Shown piece after piece: positions 26,410 to 64,000 of a stretch of 64,000 bases of DNA. The first letter of the stretch is position 1; each line of letters opens with the position of its first letter. Where the stretch lies: positions 67,564-131,563 of the forward strand of contig CAUZJO010000001.1 in NCBI GenBank assembly GCA_963580245.1, read 5' to 3'. Source of the stretch: Candidatus Sumerlaeia bacterium. Its GTDB lineage: Bacteria; Sumerlaeota; Sumerlaeia; MVZB01. The notes beneath the pieces were generated by a model. The model had not been told where the DNA came from. It made no database searches and saw only the letters and a program-made list of their open reading frames with translations. Made by a program: the position numbers and the translations under genes.

Positions 26410-27837
26410 GTGGGCTTTGAGGCCTGGGACTGGATTGATGAAAATAGGGTGGGAAATCACCTGAAATTTGAGAAATCTAGCCCGGTGCAAGCACCGGCGG
26501 GCGAGGTTTTCGCCTGGCACCAGCAGCCCGGGGCCTTCGAGCGGCTCACGCCCCCGTGGAGCAGGATTGAAGTCATCGAGCGTCCCAGCCGCATCGAGAA
26601 TGGCTCGCGAGTCGTCATTCGGATGAAGGTTGGACCCGTGTGGCGGCGGTGGGTGGCCGAGTACTGCGATTTTGAACAGGGACGCCAGTTCGCCGACGTT
26701 CAGCCCGAAGGCCCCTTCGCCTACTGGAGGCATTTACACCGGTTCAGCGCCGACGGAGAGACCGCCAGTCGGCTCAAGGACCTGATCGAGTATGAGCTGC
26801 CGCTGGGAGCACTGGGACGGGCGTTGGCCGGTCGCCATGCGCGGCGCGAGCTGGAGCGTGAGTTTCGCTATCGGCACGCGGTCACGGTCGGCGACCTCGA
26901 AATGCTGGAGCGCCACCGCCGCGCCGGCGCGGGGCCGATGCACGTCTTGGTCAGCGGCTCCTCGGGTCTGATCGGATCGCAACTGGTCCATATGCTCTCC
27001 TGCGGCGGGCATCGGGTCACCCGCCTGGTTCGCCGCCCGCCTCGCCCGGGTCAGGCCGAAGTGCGGCTGTCAGCCGAATCGGGGGGCTTCGAAGGCGGGG
27101 GGCTCGAGGGCCTTGATGCGGTGGTCCATCTGGCCGGCGAAAACGTCGTGGCGGGGTTCTGGAACGCCGGCCTCAAGCAACGCATCCGCGACAGCCGGGT
27201 CGAGGGCACGCGCCGTTTGTGCGAGGCGCTGGCCGGTCTGGACCCTCCCCCGCGCGCGCTCGTGTGCGCCTCGGCCCTCGGCTATTACGGCGACCGCGGC
27301 GATGAAGAACTGGAAGAACGAAGCGGGCCGGGCGAGAGCTTCCTGGCCGATGTCTGCCGCCAATGGGAGGCGGCGACCGAACCCGCCCGAGAGGCCGGGA
27401 TGCGGGTGGTCAAGCTGCGCGTCGGCGTCGTGTTGAGCCCCGCCGGCGGCGCGCTGGTCAAAATGCTGACGCCTTTTTGGTTGGGACTCGGCGGCCGCCT
27501 GGGCCACGGGCGGCAGTGGATGAGCTGGATCGCGCTGGACGACGCGCTCGACGTGATCTACCACGCGCTGATGGATGAGCAGCTAGAAGGCCCGGTCAAC
27601 GCCGTCACCCCCCACCCGGTGACCAACGCGGAGTTCACCAAAACGCTGGGTCGCGTGTTGCGGCGGCCGACCATTTTCCCCGCGCCGGCCTTTGCCCTGC
27701 GACTTGCCGTGGGAGAACTGGCGGACGAGCTGCTCCTGACCAGCGCGCGAGTTGTTCCCCGCCGGCTTACCGACCGTGGGCATTCATTCCGTTATCCGCA
27801 GTTGGAGGACGCATTGCGCCACGTCCTGGGGCGGTGA
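26410..27837 (+). CDS. Fusion of an N-terminal SRPBCC (polyketide-cyclase/START-like) domain with a TIGR01777/YfcH-type NAD-dependent epimerase family domain (SDR39U1 with C-terminal DUF1731).
   Basis: The SRPBCC region is KFEKSSPVQAPAGEVFAWHQQPGAFERLTPPW. The Rossmann GxxGxxG is VLVSGSSGLIGSQLV. The DUF1731-like C-terminus is …FPAPAFALRLAVGELADELLLTSARVVP. The start is uncertain (GTG 26410 or 26449). The ORF-track 5' extension to 25972 overlaps the MBL gene. Confidence 0.65.
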   Translation: MGFEAWDWIDENRVGNHLKFEKSSPVQAPAGEVFAWHQQPGAFERLTPPWSRIEVIERPSRIENGSRVVIRMKVGPVWRRWVAEYCDFEQGRQFADVQPEGPFAYWRHLHRFSADGETASRLKDLIEYELPLGALGRALAGRHARRELEREFRYRHAVTVGDLEMLERHRRAGAGPMHVLVSGSSGLIGSQLVHMLSCGGHRVTRLVRRPPRPGQAEVRLSAESGGFEGGGLEGLDAVVHLAGENVVAGFWNAGLKQRIRDSRVEGTRRLCEALAGLDPPPRALVCASALGYYGDRGDEELEERSGPGESFLADVCRQWEAATEPAREAGMRVVKLRVGVVLSPAGGALVKMLTPFWLGLGGRLGHGRQWMSWIALDDALDVIYHALMDEQLEGPVNAVTPHPVTNAEFTKTLGRVLRRPTIFPAPAFALRLAVGELADELLLTSARVVPRRLTDRGHSFRYPQLEDALRHVLGR

Positions 27838-27934
27838 GAAACCGGTGTCCGGCAACTCCGTGACGGTGAGGACCGGGGACGAGATCCAATGGGCATGAGA
27901 GGGGAGCACGCTTCGCGAGGGCGATCGGGCCCAG

Positions 27935-28315
27935 CTACGCCATGGTTCTCAAGACGGAATTCACAACTTCGCGATCGAACGCTTGCGGGTCGAATTCACC
28001 CCCGATCCAATCCAATAACTCCTGATGCTCCTCGTGATTGGGATCGCCGATCACTTCGAGAAAATGTTCGTAGCCCCAGACGCCGCCGCAGTCTTCCGGG
28101 GGGCATGCGCGCTTGCCGGCCAGGCATGCGGGGTAGCGCATGTCCTCCTTGGGCGGGCCGACCTGCTCGATCACCAGCCGATGGAGCCAGCTGTCGCCGA
28201 AGTCGTACTGATAGGTGAACTTCGCGCCCTTTCCCCGTACGACGTCGCGGAGTGCCGATTTCGTTTCGTTCAACACCTCCACGCCGAAGTCCATATCAAA
28301 ACGCAGCCATCCCAT
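27935..28315 (-). pseudogene. N-terminally truncated plasmid pRiA4b ORF-3-like protein (PF07929 family, an IS/plasmid passenger gene).
   Basis: There is a strong match to the family's C-terminal half: YQYDFGDSWLHRLVIE…GKRACPPEDCGGVWGYEHFLEVIGDPNHEEHQELLDWIGGEFDPQAFD. The family's N-terminal ~60 aa are absent. The apparent N-terminus is encoded inside the palindrome at 28304-28345. Confidence 0.7.
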
Positions 28316-28345
28316 AAGAATTCTCGAATTCTTATGGGATGGCTG
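28304..28345. repeat. Perfect 20+2+20 bp palindrome (cagccatcccataagaattc-tc-gaattcttatgggatggctg), with a degenerate extra right-arm copy at ~28388-28410.
   Basis: It is self-complementary as read. Both strands therefore encode the same peptide, QPSHKNSRILMGWL, which is seen in two ORF-track entries. Confidence 0.85.
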
Positions 28346-28767
28346 TGAAAATAAAGCGCATTTCACAATGACAACCCGAATTCCGCAGGGCTGTGGGATG
28401 GCTCTGAAACGAGGTTGCGTTCATGGAGCCGGCCGGCCGATATTATCCGCTCTATCAGCGGGCGCGCTATCGGGAAAACAAGGTTCGATGGGTCCAGCGA
28501 GAACGGTTCGTGGCAGATGCTCCGCTTGACTGGTAGGGAATTCGGGCATGCAAGAAGCGCGCGAAATCAGACGCAAGAATGAGAACTGTTGGCAAGGGCG
28601 CCACGCAATGAAGCGTCATCGCTTATACCGGCCGCGGCGGTGATCATCTCGAAGCACCCGCGAAAAACGACAGCGCATCCACCCGCCGATACGTCGCGAA
28701 GGGGCGCTCATCGCGGCGACAGGCCGATCGGGCGTGGATCGATCGATCAGTCGCGCGCTCGGATCGG

Positions 28768-30726
28768 TCAATCCAAAGCCCTGACCATCAGCTCCGCGAT
28801 ACGTCGGCTAAACGCGCTGGGATCGGCCAGTTTGCCGTCTTCGGAAAGCACCGCCTGGCCGTGCAAGAGCTCGGCGTATTCGGCGAGTCGCGGGTCTTGG
28901 GGGTCTTTTTCAAACAATGATGACAGTTTCTCGACGATGGGATGGTTAGGGTTGAGTTCCAGGATGCGTTTGACTTCCGGCACGTCCTGGCCCATTGATT
29001 TCAGGATCTGTTCGAGCTGCGGCGTGAGGTCGGCCTGTTCACCGACGAGGCACGCCGGCGAGGTCGTCAGTCGGCTGGAGAGCCGGACCTCCTTGACGTG
29101 CTTCTCAAGCTTGCCCTTGATGGCCTCGAGCAGCGATTGATACGTCTGCTCCTGCTCCTTGCGTTCCTCCTCGGCTTTTTTCTTCTCTTCCTCGTCGCCC
29201 AGTTCGATCTCGCCCTTGCCGACCGACTTGAACGGCTTATCCTTGTGTTCGAAGACCCCGCCGGTCCAGATCTCGTCGATCGGGTCGCTCAGCAGCAGGA
29301 CCTCGTAGCCCTTGTCGCGAAACGCCTCGAGGTGAGGTGAGTTCTCGATCGCCCCGCGCGACTGACCCGTCATGTAATAGACCGCGTCCTGCCCGTCCTT
29401 CATCCGGCCCACGTAATCCTGCAACGTGCTCAGCCCCCCGTCGACCTGCGTGGACTCGAACAGGCACAGATCGAGCAGCGCCTCGCGGTTGCGTTCATCA
29501 TGAATGATGCCTTCCTTGATCACGCGGCCGAACTGGCGCCAGAATTTCTCGAACGACTCGGCCTCGTCCGCCTGCATCCTGCGCAGCGTATCGAGGACCT
29601 TGCGCACCAGGCTGTTGCGGATCAGACGGATCTGGCGGTTCTGTTGCAGGATCTCGCGCGAGATGTTGAGCGAGAGGTCTTCGGAATCGACGACGCCGCG
29701 GATGAACCGGAAGTACTCGGGGATCAGCTCCTTGCAATCGTGCATGATGAAGACGCGCTTGATATAGAGTTGTATCCCGTGGTCGCCGTCGGGCATCAGG
29801 ATATTGATCGGCGCCTGGGACGGGATATAGAGCAGCGCGCGGAACTCGTGGGTCCCCTCGGCCTTTATGCTGAACCACTTGAGCGGGTCGGTCCAGTCGT
29901 GGCTGATGTGTTTGTAGAATTCCTTGAATTCCTCTTCCTTGACCTCGCTCTCGGGCCGGGTCCAGATCGCCTTCATCGAGTTGAGTGTTTGGTCCTCGAC
30001 GACGGTCCGCTCCTGGGCGCCTTCCTTGGGTTTACCTTCCTCGTCGCGTTCAATCTCGCTACGCTCAACCTGCATGCGGATGGGATACGAGACGAAGTCG
30101 GAATACTTTTTGACGGTTTGCCGAATGACCCATTCCTGCGTGAAGTCCTCGACCCCCTCTTCCTCGCTGACCGGTTTGAGGTGAAGCGTGACGGTGACGC
30201 CCTGGGCGGACCGTTCGGCTTCCTCCATCGTGTAGCGGCCGTCACCGTGCGATTCCCACTTCCAGGCCTGCTCTTCGCCGGCGCGGCGGGTGACGAGCGT
30301 CACGCGGTCGGCCACCATGAAGCTGGAATAGAAGCCGACGCCAAATTGTCCGATGAGTTCGGTCGGCACGTCGCTCTTCTTGGTTTGCTTGACCAGCTCG
30401 AGGAAATCGGCGGTCCCCGACTTGGCGATCGTTCCGATAAAACGGATGATCTCGTCGTGATTCATCCCGATCCCGTTGTCGCTGACCGAGAGCGTGCGCT
30501 TGTCCCCGTCCACTTCGATGTGGATATGGGCGTCTTCGGTCAGGTTGCCCAGCTTCTCACTGGTCAGGGCCTCGAAGCGCAGTTTGTCGAGGGCGTCGGA
30601 GGCGTTCGAGATCAGCTCGCGCAGGAATATCTCCTTGTGCGAGTATACTGAATGAATCATCAGATCCAAAAGCTGCTTGGCCTCGGTCTGGAATTCATGG
30701 GTTTCGATCGTGGCGGTCATCGTCAA
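28768..30726 (-). CDS. htpG: Molecular chaperone HtpG (Hsp90).
   Basis: The N-terminal ATPase motifs are FLRELISNASDALDKLRF and GQFGVGFYSSFMVADRV. The length is 652 aa, with GGAGGAG as Shine-Dalgarno. Confidence 0.92.
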   Translation of the reverse strand: MTMTATIETHEFQTEAKQLLDLMIHSVYSHKEIFLRELISNASDALDKLRFEALTSEKLGNLTEDAHIHIEVDGDKRTLSVSDNGIGMNHDEIIRFIGTIAKSGTADFLELVKQTKKSDVPTELIGQFGVGFYSSFMVADRVTLVTRRAGEEQAWKWESHGDGRYTMEEAERSAQGVTVTLHLKPVSEEEGVEDFTQEWVIRQTVKKYSDFVSYPIRMQVERSEIERDEEGKPKEGAQERTVVEDQTLNSMKAIWTRPESEVKEEEFKEFYKHISHDWTDPLKWFSIKAEGTHEFRALLYIPSQAPINILMPDGDHGIQLYIKRVFIMHDCKELIPEYFRFIRGVVDSEDLSLNISREILQQNRQIRLIRNSLVRKVLDTLRRMQADEAESFEKFWRQFGRVIKEGIIHDERNREALLDLCLFESTQVDGGLSTLQDYVGRMKDGQDAVYYMTGQSRGAIENSPHLEAFRDKGYEVLLLSDPIDEIWTGGVFEHKDKPFKSVGKGEIELGDEEEKKKAEEERKEQEQTYQSLLEAIKGKLEKHVKEVRLSSRLTTSPACLVGEQADLTPQLEQILKSMGQDVPEVKRILELNPNHPIVEKLSSLFEKDPQDPRLAEYAELLHGQAVLSEDGKLADPSAFSRRIAELMVRALD

Positions 30727-30889
30727 GGGTCTCCTCCAATGGCGGTCGTCGCATCAATTACTGGCGTTCTCTGGCGGGTGGCGGAGCAATCTTATCGTTT
30801 GACCGCCACCTACAGTAACAGAACTATTACCACGACCAGCGTTGGGAATCACCTGGTTTTTGTAGATTCTTTCGTATCAATAGGACGCG

Positions 30890-31035
30890 GATGACGCGGA
30901 TTTTACGGATTCACACCGATCAGAGAATAATTAAAACTTGTTTATATATTGCCTTAATCCGTGAAAATCTGTCAAATCCGTATCATCTGTGTTCCATAAT
31001 TCGCGAGAATCCGTTGAATCCGCGTCATCCGCGTT
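30890..31035. promoter_or_regulatory. AT-rich (40% GC) module in the htpG promoter region. It is bounded by 15-bp inverted repeats and carries multiple CGGATT/AATCCG half-sites. It is either a candidate heat-shock operator or a MITE-like insertion.
   Basis: ggatgacgcggattc at 30889-30903 and gaatccgcgtcatcc at 31021-31035 are perfect reverse complements. Inside, CGGATT occurs twice on the left and AATCCG four times on the right. GC is 40%, against ~63% for the window. Confidence 0.5.
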
Positions 31036-38188: not shown

Positions 38189-40243
38189 TCACCAGATCGA
38201 GTCCAACTTCCAAATATCGAGCCGCTTCACTTTCGCCGAACCCCCAGCGGAAAACAATTCAATTCCCAAGTCCGTCGCCGGCGCGGAGACCCTCACCGTA
38301 TAAACCACCCAATCGTTGGCGAAGACTTCTATGATATGTTGATCGATGAAGACGTGCAGACGCAACGTCGATTCTCCTTCCATGAGATCGGCGGGGATTC
38401 GTTCGCCGCTGACCTCGAGGCGCTCCCCATCATAACGGATCGGAACATATTGGGATCCGTCCGCGGAACGCCGTAGCTTCAACCCGAATTCCTGGGCCGA
38501 GCCGGGGACGAATTCCACTTTGACCTCGAGCATGTTCCCTTCGATACCGCGAATCACGTGGGACGTATCCACGAGGTCCACGTCCGTTTCAGCATAGTGT
38601 TCCCCTCTTAACTTGGCTAATGCTTCTATCGGCCGCTGGGCGAGCTTGCCGTCGGGCCTGATCGTCAGCACCCGCGGCAGCGACTGGCCACCCGGCGCCA
38701 TGCCCATGTAGATCATGCGGCCGTCCTTATCCTCGAACGGCGTGCAGCCATAAAACGATCCTGAATATTCCGCGTGGCCGTGCGTTTTGGGATCGTGCTT
38801 CTCGGAACCGACGAAATCCACGAAACTGTGCACCTCCGGCGTAAAGGTGACATTTTCCCAATCGAAGGTGCCCGTATAGTATTGAGTCGGGCCGAAGGGT
38901 TCGAAGATAACGACCCATTTATCACCCAGCTTAAACATCTCGGGCTCTTCCCACCCTTTCGTCTCGGCGACGTAAGGAAGGCCCACAAACTCCCAATTCA
39001 TCAAGTCGTCGGACCCATGAAGGGTAAAGCAGCCCTTGGTTTCGCCGTCTACTTTGATCTTGCCTCCGAGAACCATGTACCATCGGCCCTCGTGCTTGAA
39101 CACGCTGCAATCGGTCCCGGTGCCGTTGATCCTCATGGCCATCGGGTTATCCGGAGTATTCGTGATCACCGGATTCGTCGCGACCTTGCGCCATTTCTCG
39201 AAGGTAGCGTCGCCCACGGCCGCCATCTGATCCATGGGCCGTTCCGAACTGCGACTGGTGTAGAAAATCCATGGCGTGCCGTCGTCGCCAATGACCGCGG
39301 CGCCGGACGCGCAATAGAACTCGCCGTTATCCTCCGACGGCCAGATCACCACGGACATGTCTTCCCAATACACCAGGTCCTTGGAGCGCGCGTGACGCCA
39401 GAAATTATGGTTCCAGACGTCCTTGCGATCCCAAAAAGGATCATAGATGTAGAACAGGTGATAGTATCCGTCGTGATAGACGCAAGTCGGCCCGCCGAAC
39501 CCGAACACCGCCGGTGTGTAATGGTAACCGCGACGCGACGGGGCCTTCTTTTCCGCTCGTTGCACGTTTTCGTTGGCGCGATGCAAAATGTCGGCGCGGG
39601 TATAGATGTCCCTTTGGGGTTGGTCGCTCTGCGCGATCTGATCGACGCAGATGAACCCCTCCGATCCGGAATGGTTGTCCACGACCTGAATCCGCGCGGT
39701 TTGGCCCCGCAGGGACCGGACATCCCAGGTTTCCCACTGCAGTTCAACGTTTCCGGCGGGCGAGAGGCCGGGCCCCGTCGTCGTGCGCAGGACAATCCGA
39801 TCACCCACGGCAAGCCGATGATGTCCGGTGTGAATATGATCGAAGGTCAGCGGGAGCCCGACGGGCTTGATGAGCAGGTTCACGCAGCACTCGTCCCCCC
39901 AGAAATCTCGAGGCGCCCTGGTCCGCCGGCTTCCCCGGTGATGTCCGCCGCCGATCTGGAAGTTGATAAAGTCACGTTCGATGACGAATTCCGGCGAAGT
40001 CAGGACACCCTTGGCCGCCTCTCCTCCGTGAAAGGAGTTGATAAAGCGCCCGTTTTCCCATCCCCTCACTGCCGGCTGTCCGGGGAGCGCGCCCGTTACC
40101 GGTTCCTGGCCGAACGCTTCCCCGGAAACTTGCCATTCCCCATGGTCCTCTGCCTCGAAATCGTTAATGAAAACATCACCCGCCGCGCTGGAGATGGCGT
40201 ACAAGAAGACGTGCAGAGCAATCCAAGGGATTATGCGCCTCAT
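38189..40243 (-). CDS. Secreted GH32-fold protein, copy 2 of 3, lacking the nucleophile Asp.
   Basis: The architecture is the same, with FGFGGPTCVYHDGYYHLFYIYDP, GTDCSVFKHEGRWYMVLGG and WEEPEMFKLGD. The ATG at 40243 with an AGGAGA Shine-Dalgarno gives a signal peptide MRRIIPWIALHVFLYAISSAAG. Confidence 0.75.
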   Translation of the reverse strand: MRRIIPWIALHVFLYAISSAAGDVFINDFEAEDHGEWQVSGEAFGQEPVTGALPGQPAVRGWENGRFINSFHGGEAAKGVLTSPEFVIERDFINFQIGGGHHRGSRRTRAPRDFWGDECCVNLLIKPVGLPLTFDHIHTGHHRLAVGDRIVLRTTTGPGLSPAGNVELQWETWDVRSLRGQTARIQVVDNHSGSEGFICVDQIAQSDQPQRDIYTRADILHRANENVQRAEKKAPSRRGYHYTPAVFGFGGPTCVYHDGYYHLFYIYDPFWDRKDVWNHNFWRHARSKDLVYWEDMSVVIWPSEDNGEFYCASGAAVIGDDGTPWIFYTSRSSERPMDQMAAVGDATFEKWRKVATNPVITNTPDNPMAMRINGTGTDCSVFKHEGRWYMVLGGKIKVDGETKGCFTLHGSDDLMNWEFVGLPYVAETKGWEEPEMFKLGDKWVVIFEPFGPTQYYTGTFDWENVTFTPEVHSFVDFVGSEKHDPKTHGHAEYSGSFYGCTPFEDKDGRMIYMGMAPGGQSLPRVLTIRPDGKLAQRPIEALAKLRGEHYAETDVDLVDTSHVIRGIEGNMLEVKVEFVPGSAQEFGLKLRRSADGSQYVPIRYDGERLEVSGERIPADLMEGESTLRLHVFIDQHIIEVFANDWVVYTVRVSAPATDLGIELFSAGGSAKVKRLDIWKLDSIW

Positions 40244-40276: not shown

Positions 40277-42337
40277 CTACCAAATAGAGGCCAACTTCCA
40301 GATTTCGAGGTTCTTCACCTTCGTCGAACCCCCAGCGGAAAACAATTCGATTCCCAAGTCCGTCGCCGGCGCGGAGACCGCCACCGTATAGACCACCCAA
40401 TCATTGGCGAAGACTTCCATGATATGTTGATCGATAAAGACGTGAAGCCGCAACGTGGTTTCGCCTTCCATGAGATCGGCGGGGATTCGTTCGCCGCTGA
40501 CCTCGAGGCGCTCCCCATCATAACGGATCGGAATATTTTGGGATCCGTCCGCGGAACGCCGTAGCTTCAACCCGAATTCCTGGGCCGAGCCGGGGACGAA
40601 TTCCACTTTGACCTCGAGCATGTTCCCCTCGATGCCATGAATCACATGGGACTCATCCGCGAGGTCCACGTCCGTTTTCGCGTAGTGTTCCCCTCTTAAT
40701 TTAGCCAACGCCTCGATAGGTTTCTGGGCGAGTTTGCCGTCGGGCCGCATCGTCAGCACCCGGGGTAGCGACTGGCCACCCGGCGCCATGCCCATGTAGA
40801 TCATGCGGCCGTCCTTATCCTCGAACGGCGTGCATCCATAAAACGATCCCGAGTATTCCGCATGGCCGTGCGTCTTGGGATCGTGCTTCTCCGAGCCGAC
40901 GAAATCGACGAAACCATGCACTTCGGGCGTAAAGGTGTAATTCTCCCAATCGAAGCTGCCGGTATAGTATTGAGTCGGGCCGAAGGGCTCGAAGATGACG
41001 ACCCATTTGTCGCCCAGTTTAAACATCTCGGGCTCTTCCCACCCTTTGGTGTCGGCGACGTAGGGAACGCTCACGAATTCCCAGTCGATCAGGTCGTCCG
41101 ACGCGTGCAGGGAGTAACATCCTTTGTATTCGCCGTCGACCATCTTGAGTCCTCCAAGGACCATGTACCACTTATCCTCATGTTTAAATATGCCACAATC
41201 CGTCCCGTGGGTCATGGGATTATCCGGCGTGTTGGTGATGACGGCATTGGTCGGATACTTGCGCCAGGTCGTTAAATCCGCGTCTCCCACCGCCGCCATC
41301 TGGTCCATGGGCCGCTCCGAACTGCGGCTTGTGTAAAATAGCCTCGGCACGCCGTTGTCGTCGATCACGGCCGCGCCCGAGGCGCAATAGAACTCGCCAT
41401 TGTCCTCCGAAGGCCAGATCTCCACGTCCAAGTCTTCCCAATACACCAGGTCCTTGGATCGCGCGTGACGCCAGAAATTGTGGTTCCATGTGTCCTTACG
41501 GTCCCAAAACGGGTCATAGATATAGAACAGATGATAGTACCCGTCGTGATAAACGCAAGTCGGTCCGCCGAAACCGAAGACAGGCGCATTGTAGTGGTAA
41601 GCGTGACGCGGCGGGGCTTCTTTTTCGGCTTTCGCGACGTTTTCATTGGCGCGCCGCAGAATGTCGGCGTCGTGCAAGACGTCCCATCGGGGCTGATCAC
41701 TCTGGACGATTTGATCGACGCAGATGAAACCGTGCCGCCCCGCATTGTTATCAACGATCCGGATCTGGGCCGTCTTGCCGCGTAGGGTTCGGACGTCCCA
41801 GGTCGCCCATTCCAACTCGACCCGATCGTCCGAATCCAAGCCCGGGCCGGTCGTCGTGCGCAGGGCGATCTTGTCGCCGACGGCCAGTCGGTGATGTCCG
41901 GCGTTAATGGTTTCGAACGTATAGACCAGCTCGGCCGGATCGAGGAGTAGGGTTAGACAACACTCCTCGCCGTAAAACTCCTTCGGCTCGCGGATGTTGC
42001 GTTTTCCCAGGTGGTATCCACCACCGACGAGAAAGTTGATATAGTCCCGTTCGATCACGAAAGGCGGCGAAGTCAGAACACCCTTCGAAGCTTCTCCGCC
42101 ATGACGAGAGTACAACAGACGGTCCCCGGAATAGCCCTTTATCGACGGTTGGTCGACTCGGGGCCCCACGGTGGGGCCCGCGCCGAACGCTTTTCCCGTC
42201 ACCGCCCATTCTTCAAATGACTCATTCTCGAAATCGGCGATGAGAAGATCTTGCGAGCCGGCCGGCGTGACCACGTTCGCAAACATTGCCGCCAGAAACC
42301 ACAGGTGGCCTAAGCATCTTTTTGCGCGTTTTCCCAT
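40277..42337 (-). CDS. Secreted GH32-fold protein, copy 3 of 3, lacking the nucleophile Asp.
   Basis: Its C-terminal third is ~93% identical to copy 2, including identical nucleotide stretches. It is separated from copy 2 by only 33 bp. Confidence 0.75.
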   Translation of the reverse strand: MGKRAKRCLGHLWFLAAMFANVVTPAGSQDLLIADFENESFEEWAVTGKAFGAGPTVGPRVDQPSIKGYSGDRLLYSRHGGEASKGVLTSPPFVIERDYINFLVGGGYHLGKRNIREPKEFYGEECCLTLLLDPAELVYTFETINAGHHRLAVGDKIALRTTTGPGLDSDDRVELEWATWDVRTLRGKTAQIRIVDNNAGRHGFICVDQIVQSDQPRWDVLHDADILRRANENVAKAEKEAPPRHAYHYNAPVFGFGGPTCVYHDGYYHLFYIYDPFWDRKDTWNHNFWRHARSKDLVYWEDLDVEIWPSEDNGEFYCASGAAVIDDNGVPRLFYTSRSSERPMDQMAAVGDADLTTWRKYPTNAVITNTPDNPMTHGTDCGIFKHEDKWYMVLGGLKMVDGEYKGCYSLHASDDLIDWEFVSVPYVADTKGWEEPEMFKLGDKWVVIFEPFGPTQYYTGSFDWENYTFTPEVHGFVDFVGSEKHDPKTHGHAEYSGSFYGCTPFEDKDGRMIYMGMAPGGQSLPRVLTMRPDGKLAQKPIEALAKLRGEHYAKTDVDLADESHVIHGIEGNMLEVKVEFVPGSAQEFGLKLRRSADGSQNIPIRYDGERLEVSGERIPADLMEGETTLRLHVFIDQHIMEVFANDWVVYTVAVSAPATDLGIELFSAGGSTKVKNLEIWKLASIW

Positions 42338-63732: not shown

Positions 63733-64000
63733 TCATACCAGTTCCTCGAGCGGGACGCCAGTCTTGTCCTCGAGCGAGTTGGCGATCTTGATCGGCCGGC
63801 CGATGGGGTGCATGTATTCCTTGGTCCAGTCGATCCCGAAGGCCTTGTAGACGGTCGCGAACACGTCGCCCATCGAGACCATCCGTTCGGCGACGTAGGC
63901 GCCGCGCTCGTCGCTGGCGCCGATGACCTGGCCGCCCCGGATGCCGCCGCCGGCGAGGACCCCCGTCCAGCATTCGGGCCAGTGGTCGCGCCCGCCCCCT
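63733..64000 (-). CDS. Second DUF1501 paralog. Only the C-terminal part is in the window; it continues past the edge.
   Basis: The nucleotide sequence over 63733-64000 is ~85% identical to 62355-62620. The translation ends …LEELV*. Confidence 0.65.
   Translation of the reverse strand, partial: GGGRDHWPECWTGVLAGGGIRGGQVIGASDERGAYVAERMVSMGDVFATVYKAFGIDWTKEYMHPIGRPIKIANSLEDKTGVPLEELV

Follow-up and report, generated by a model that had tools for sequence, protein, structure and literature searches.

The 42-base palindrome that caps a beheaded PF07929 (PRiA4_ORF3) gene next to htpG very probably is the scar of a deletion. Compared with its one informative relative, the window (the whole 64-kb stretch of DNA that was analysed) is shorter at this site by at least 2.65 kb, and what is gone comprises the greater part of a gene for a GH127-like glycosidase and one or more further genes, together with codons 1-81 of the PF07929 gene and the ribosome-binding site that preceded them. 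To the whole explanation, in which the palindrome would mark a deletion junction of this lineage and its first arm would be a template-switch copy, we assign a probability of about 55% on the strength of sequence comparison. The palindrome would then best be seen as an unremarkable by-product of genome decay at the point of a deletion, not as a working element. The features discussed below are listed in Table 1.

Table 1. Features at and around the palindrome, in window coordinates
Feature	Position	Strand	Sequence or length	Remarks
TIGR01777-type SRPBCC/epimerase gene	26410..27837	+		Convergent with the PF07929 remnant; same neighbour in the relative
PF07929 (PRiA4_ORF3) remnant	27935..28297	-		Codons 82-201 of the orthologue plus stop codon
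Left AAACG	28299..28303	+	AAACG	Directly abuts the orphan segment; not homologous to the orthologous PF07929 gene
Orphan junction segment	28304..28406		103 bp	Without counterpart in the relative's available contigs
Palindrome arm 1	28304..28323		CAGCCATCCCATAAGAATTC	Contains the minus-strand ATG (28315-28313) at which the annotated 126-aa ORF starts
Palindrome spacer	28324..28325		TC, 2 nt	Centre; GAATTC hexamer on each side
Palindrome arm 2	28326..28345		GAATTCTTATGGGATGGCTG	
Third partial copy	28394..28409	+	TGGGATGGCTCTGAAA	Straddles the junction with the GH127-like remnant
Right AAACG	28407..28411	+	AAACG	Directly abuts the orphan segment; native GH127-like sequence (relative: GGGAAACGAGG)
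GH127-like glycosidase remnant	28408..28536	+		Last 42 codons plus stop (28534-28536); 652 aa in the relative
htpG and conserved 3' flank	28661..30720	-		htpG is 28768-30720; 91.6% identical to the relative

The palindrome and the truncated gene

The palindrome is as exact as the first-pass annotation had described it, with two 20-nt arms that are 100% complementary around a 2-nt spacer. It is the sole long perfect hairpin across the 64-kb window, and 100 dinucleotide shuffles of the window gave no arm matches. Two ENA metagenome assemblies and a Logan run assembly between them supply three public contigs in which the region is 100% identical, so that the palindrome is not one assembly's artefact; it lies in the interior of contigs that measure 21-98 kb in independent assemblies. 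It is a real structure and not a random one. The hexamer GAATTC occurs four times within 28318-28543, against 32 occurrences in the whole window.

The degenerate third arm that had also been noticed is likewise present. This copy, TGGGATGGCTcTGAAA (28394-28409), is a direct repeat of arm 2 and its flank (28335-28350) with 15 of 16 positions identical, and its 10-nt core (28394-28403) is an inverted repeat of arm 1. The arms and the third copy make up an orphan segment, ordered as arm 1, a 2-nt spacer, arm 2, 48 nt and the third copy, whose boundary is uncertain by 1 nt because base 28406 also matches the relative. The segment has a G+C content of 47.6%, against 61.7% for the window, is strongly structured (z = -6.1) and also holds a small second hairpin formed by TGTGAAA (28344-28350) and TTTCACA (28361-28367). 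The pair of AAACG pentamers abutting its two ends would arise by chance in about 1% of cases by our own estimate; on the minus strand, the left one is part of the CGTTTT that follows the hairpin. A perfect 10-nt inverted repeat, CCCGAATTCC at 28375-28384 and GGAATTCGGG at 28537-28546, brackets the GH127-like remnant, and its right copy differs at two positions from the relative's GGAGTTCAGG.

The PF07929 open reading frame (ORF) lies on the minus strand and covers 27935-28366 when read from a GTG, or 27935-28315 when read from the ATG inside arm 1, which is the start that public gene callers take, giving the 126-aa product. Residues 24-133 of the ORF are a strong match (E = 1e-43) to the C-terminal two thirds of the PF07929 domain, at profile positions 63-172 of 173, and all the invariant residues of the matched part are retained. 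Positions 1-62 are missing: aligned to full-length members, the ORF is without the N-terminal PPIWRR and MGW..HLH.F motifs, and a search of every frame of 27800-28900 yielded no trace of coding sequence for the N-terminal part. NCBIfam offers no family name for the window protein, and its 90%-identity cluster has one other member, P0121, a syntenic orthologue from the relative at 89% DNA identity. At 201 aa, the orthologue covers Pfam positions 2-172, which bears out the earlier claim that the gene in the window is truncated; it aligns over residues 19-193 with PDB 2i1s (PF07929/PRiA4_ORF3, MM3350-like).

Members of the family are typically about 185-200 aa long, and thousands of stand-alone members of about 190 aa exist. 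Short members (< 145 aa) number about nine among the best 120 matches, and two of these were checked: in P0096 the N-terminal half is encoded upstream but out of frame with the rest, and P0059 is truncated and frameshifted. Because both are broken genes, natural short forms do not rescue the window ORF, and neither is a homologue that naturally begins at the point of truncation. Two PF07929 genes from unrelated metagenomes (L029 1300-1887 and L030 1300-1893) are broken near MGW/HLH, one by a frameshift and one by a truncation, which hints at frequent decay of the family or at a region that is error-prone in assemblies.

The orthologue carries AGGAG 9 nt before its ATG, whereas the remnant in the window has no ribosome-binding site and has lost all its upstream DNA. 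Its AUG sits in a 17-19 bp RNA stem that dominates a fold of -55 kcal/mol (z = -5.2), and the predicted hairpin would bury it in the RNA. The Ka/Ks ratio against the relative is 0.42 for the remnant (from only 32 substitutions), 0.08 for htpG and 0.19 for the epimerase fragment. The remnant is free of stop codons and frameshifts, so that residual function is possible. The 126-aa product in public databases is most likely a pseudogene fragment, and the entry (sources NCBI, JGI, ENA and Logan) should be treated as such: it is beheaded, and its apparent start codon, which does lie inside the palindrome as first reported, is created by the junction sequence.

Comparison with a related strain

The relative comes from the groundwater metagenome MIZU16-1 and is represented by two contigs, L004 and L005, at 89-92% DNA identity to the window; the next-best epimerase homologues are at most 61% identical, which leaves it the only informative one. 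L004, a contig of 1373 bp, aligns with the window at 89% identity over a stretch that begins at 28297 and descends through the rest of the PF07929 gene and the intergenic spacer into the 3' end of the epimerase gene, which is convergent with it; above 28297 L004 and the window share no similarity. Its intact PF07929 gene thus sits beside the same epimerase gene as the remnant does in the window. L005 carries an HtpG that is 96% identical to that of the window, and matches the window DNA at 91.6% over 30980-28661 and at 91.2% over 28631-28406. The second of these blocks ends inside the GH127-like gene (L005 3047-5005, 652 aa), which is convergent on htpG. Beyond it, L005 3178-5419, comprising most of the GH127-like gene and the next gene, has no match anywhere in the window; that next gene is divergent and glycosidase-like, and is not a transposase.

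Set against the relative, the loss in the window begins 43 codons short of the end of the GH127-like gene and extends up to and including codon 81 of the PF07929 gene. It amounts to at least 2.65 kb (2242 + 411 bp), and its true size is one that we infer, L004 and L005 being unjoined. In the ancestor, as the relative preserves it, htpG was followed by the convergent GH127-like gene and the divergent glycosidase-like gene; the L004- and L005-type segments, with the sequence that once lay between them, would have been contiguous there. The locus offers a clean natural example of gene loss, in which glycosidase-type genes are gone between two conserved anchors and a perfect palindrome stands right at the breakpoint, and it could serve as a case study of hairpins arising from rearrangements. 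It holds no new biology unless the orphan segment proves mobile.

Other differences and features were recorded in the surroundings. The conserved 3' flank of htpG has a terminator-like site at 28688-28671. Downstream of htpG the relative has about 302 bp (L005 2649-2950), with a possible small signal-peptide-like ORF, against about 29 unrelated nucleotides in the window (28632-28660); this makes two indels in the one decaying intergenic region. On the other side of htpG, in the intergenic DNA upstream, a 17-nt sequence, CGCGGATGACGCGGATT, recurs exactly in inverted orientation (30886-30902 and 31017-31033), and between its copies lies an AT-rich segment (some 114 bp, GC about 0.35) that looks hairpin- or MITE-like; its middle part differs in L005, and a search of it against Rfam gave sub-threshold miRNA-type noise only. 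Further away, a 124-bp repeat (40279-40402) is 88.7% identical to positions 2-125 of contig L001 (about 38191-38314 of the window) and falls in two tandem GH32 glycosidase genes, apparent paralogues. Positions 4588-10324 of contig L031 (from about 62355 of the window to its end at 64000 and past it) hold a PSCyt2/PSD1 gene followed by two DUF1501 genes, a gene content typical of Planctomycetota. The best named relatives of HtpG belong to Sumerlaeota/BRC1 at only 68%, and the lineage is poorly sampled.

Origin of the palindrome

Because arm 2 and the third copy also share the flank TGAAA, we take them as the older, direct-repeat pair. Arm 1 would probably be the youngest copy, since its similarity ends at the edge of the arm while the others share the flank; it would be a newer, still-perfect inverted copy of arm 2. 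We suggest that a template switch (fold-back) in replication or repair, starting from the self-complementary GAATTC hexamers, produced arm 1, either as part of the rearrangement behind the deletion or shortly afterwards. Template switching at inverted repeats is given as an established source of perfect inverted copies in two papers (PMC7202029; bioRxiv 10.1101/2021.11.26.470150). The AAACG repeats at both ends of the segment are not predicted by the template-switch model and are a better fit to a transposon target-site duplication.

The orphan segment has no significant similarity to the 411 bp of L004 missing from the window (local, gapped and ungapped alignments, with shuffles), to the 2.2 kb of L005 beyond the junction (with shuffle controls) or to the relative-only 302-bp stretch downstream of htpG; scores against the relative are in the shuffle range, the best p being about 0.03 before multiple-test correction. 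A templated origin from the rest of the window finds no backing either, the longest exact match being 13 nt, which 27 of 200 shuffles equalled or bettered. Rfam returned only a sub-threshold miRNA-hairpin match, which is noise. The idea that arm 1 derives from the conserved MGW codons was also rejected: a 9-mer, ATGGGATGG, is identical there in the orthologue, which is within chance expectation, and an in-frame match of 9/38 amino acids, with DNA only 31% identical, was treated as chance.

The first-pass annotation had proposed a scar of mobile-element activity, leaving open a MITE, a hairpin-end element or a deletion junction. The last of these is shown directly by the relative; the element itself is unproven, with inverted ends and AAACG repeats to its credit and no second copy in the sequences searched. 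On that view the 103-bp segment would be a miniature non-autonomous (MITE-like) transposon, or the collapsed ends of an insertion sequence, whose arrival at AAACG close to the 3' end of the GH127-like gene duplicated 5 bp of the target; the element or its transposase would then have promoted the neighbouring deletion. We regard this origin as unlikely. Its inverted ends would be CAGCCATCCCA at 28304-28314 and TGGGATGGCT(CTG) at 28394-28406, AAACG abuts both of them where the single uninterrupted GGGAAACGAGG of the relative resembles an empty site, and the segment is small, of lower G+C content and strongly structured. However, the ends match ungapped over only 10 nt (28305-14 and 28394-403), or over 13 nt if a bulge of 2 nt is allowed. 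On the left, the sequence beyond AAACG is moreover PF07929 and not GH127, which would require the deletion to have stopped precisely at the outer edge of the duplication; when an insertion sequence drives a deletion next to itself, the target duplication is normally lost.

Copy number argues in the same direction. With 5 mismatches in 20 tolerated in the arms, no second copy of the palindrome or the segment was found in the 64-kb window and 8.7 kb of extra contig (L031), about 73 kb of this genome. The wider searches were of collections that do not include the source genome: there, a 20-mer gave two unrelated Firmicute matches among genome contigs, neither with both arms, an 18-mer gave 20 unrelated single matches among metagenome contigs, with no common flanks and no palindrome, viral contigs gave 0 matches, and blastn against plasmids and phages gave none. 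The insertion-sequence or transposase remnants for which a search had been advised are also absent, the called genes of window 17935-38315 (about 10 kb on each side) holding no transposase, integrase or recombinase Pfam domain. Two more specific candidates are ruled out. Abutted insertion-sequence ends (IRR, 2 bp, IRL) have no insertion-sequence body on either side, and a hairpin telomere or protelomerase site is at odds with a position internal to contigs and with the lack of a protelomerase gene in the called genes nearby. That the segment is the first copy to be seen of an undescribed tiny hairpin-ended mobile element, one that inserts at AAACG with a 5-bp duplication and provokes adjacent deletions, seems to us improbable.

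We are similarly doubtful that the segment is an ancestral island left between two separate deletions, in which a vanished minus-strand gene, once situated upstream of the PF07929 gene, would survive as its 3' end with a hairpin terminator. That strand does read TGA (28366-28364), a 20-nt spacer, a 19-bp stem and then CGTTTTGATA, which a scan flags as terminator-like; an island would account for the left AAAACG not being PF07929 sequence, and the other indels relative to the related strain in this region make stepwise decay plausible. Against it, the segment resembles neither the 168 bp that precede the intact L004 gene nor the 414 bp of L005 beyond the GH127-like gene, the perfect AT-rich 20-bp stem is unlike anything else in the 62% GC window, and the third repeat copy is left unexplained.

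Very improbable indeed is the first-pass view of the PF07929 gene as the passenger of a mobile element integrated beside htpG, with the palindrome as the hairpin or terminal structure of that element: some ISAzba1-group transposons carry a pRiA4_Orf3-like passenger gene (PMC3942029), but the intact orthologue keeps the same chromosomal neighbour in the relative, whose upstream genes are glycosidase-like and not transposases, the genes called across window 17935-38315 are free of transposase, integrase and recombinase domains, stand-alone members of the family number in the thousands, and the palindrome is internal to contigs in three assemblies, hence not a replicon end.

Present-day role and comparison with known systems

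The orphan segment probably has no role at present. On the minus strand the palindrome hairpin is flagged as terminator-like by a lenient scan, and no intact gene ends just upstream of it; the hairpin and the CGUUUU after it may happen to stop read-through transcription. Also on the minus strand, the palindrome is spanned by a match to a promoter (TTCACA, 18 nt, GAGAAT) that has only 9/12 of the consensus.

Like Rho-independent terminators, the locus has a stable minus-strand hairpin followed by CGUUUUGAUA. Such terminators have a GC-rich hairpin and a U tract, whereas here a perfect AT-rich stem of 19-20 bp precedes a short U run, and the palindrome falls within the beginning of an annotated ORF, at a distance of 420 nt from htpG, with a further terminator-like site in between. 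With MITEs and solo inverted-repeat remnants of insertion sequences the segment has in common its length of about 100 bp, inverted ends, a higher A+T content than the host, a marked potential to form a hairpin and a direct repeat of 5 bp that abuts both ends. It differs from them in being single-copy in everything searched, in having no parent element and in having flanks that are not contiguous in the relative. Unlike the ISAzba1-group transposons, it has no adjacent gene for a Mutator-type transposase or a recombinase, either among the called genes of window 17935-38315 or among the relative's neighbouring genes.

The closest likeness is to template-switch (quasipalindrome or fold-back) mutations as presented in PMC7202029 and bioRxiv 10.1101/2021.11.26.470150. 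As in those mutations, a perfect inverted copy lies immediately beside its template, and the present palindrome is centred on a short self-complementary sequence, GAATTC-TC-GAATTC, at a rearrangement junction. The bacterial cases described there mostly correct imperfect palindromes over a few bases, whereas the copy here would span 20 nt.
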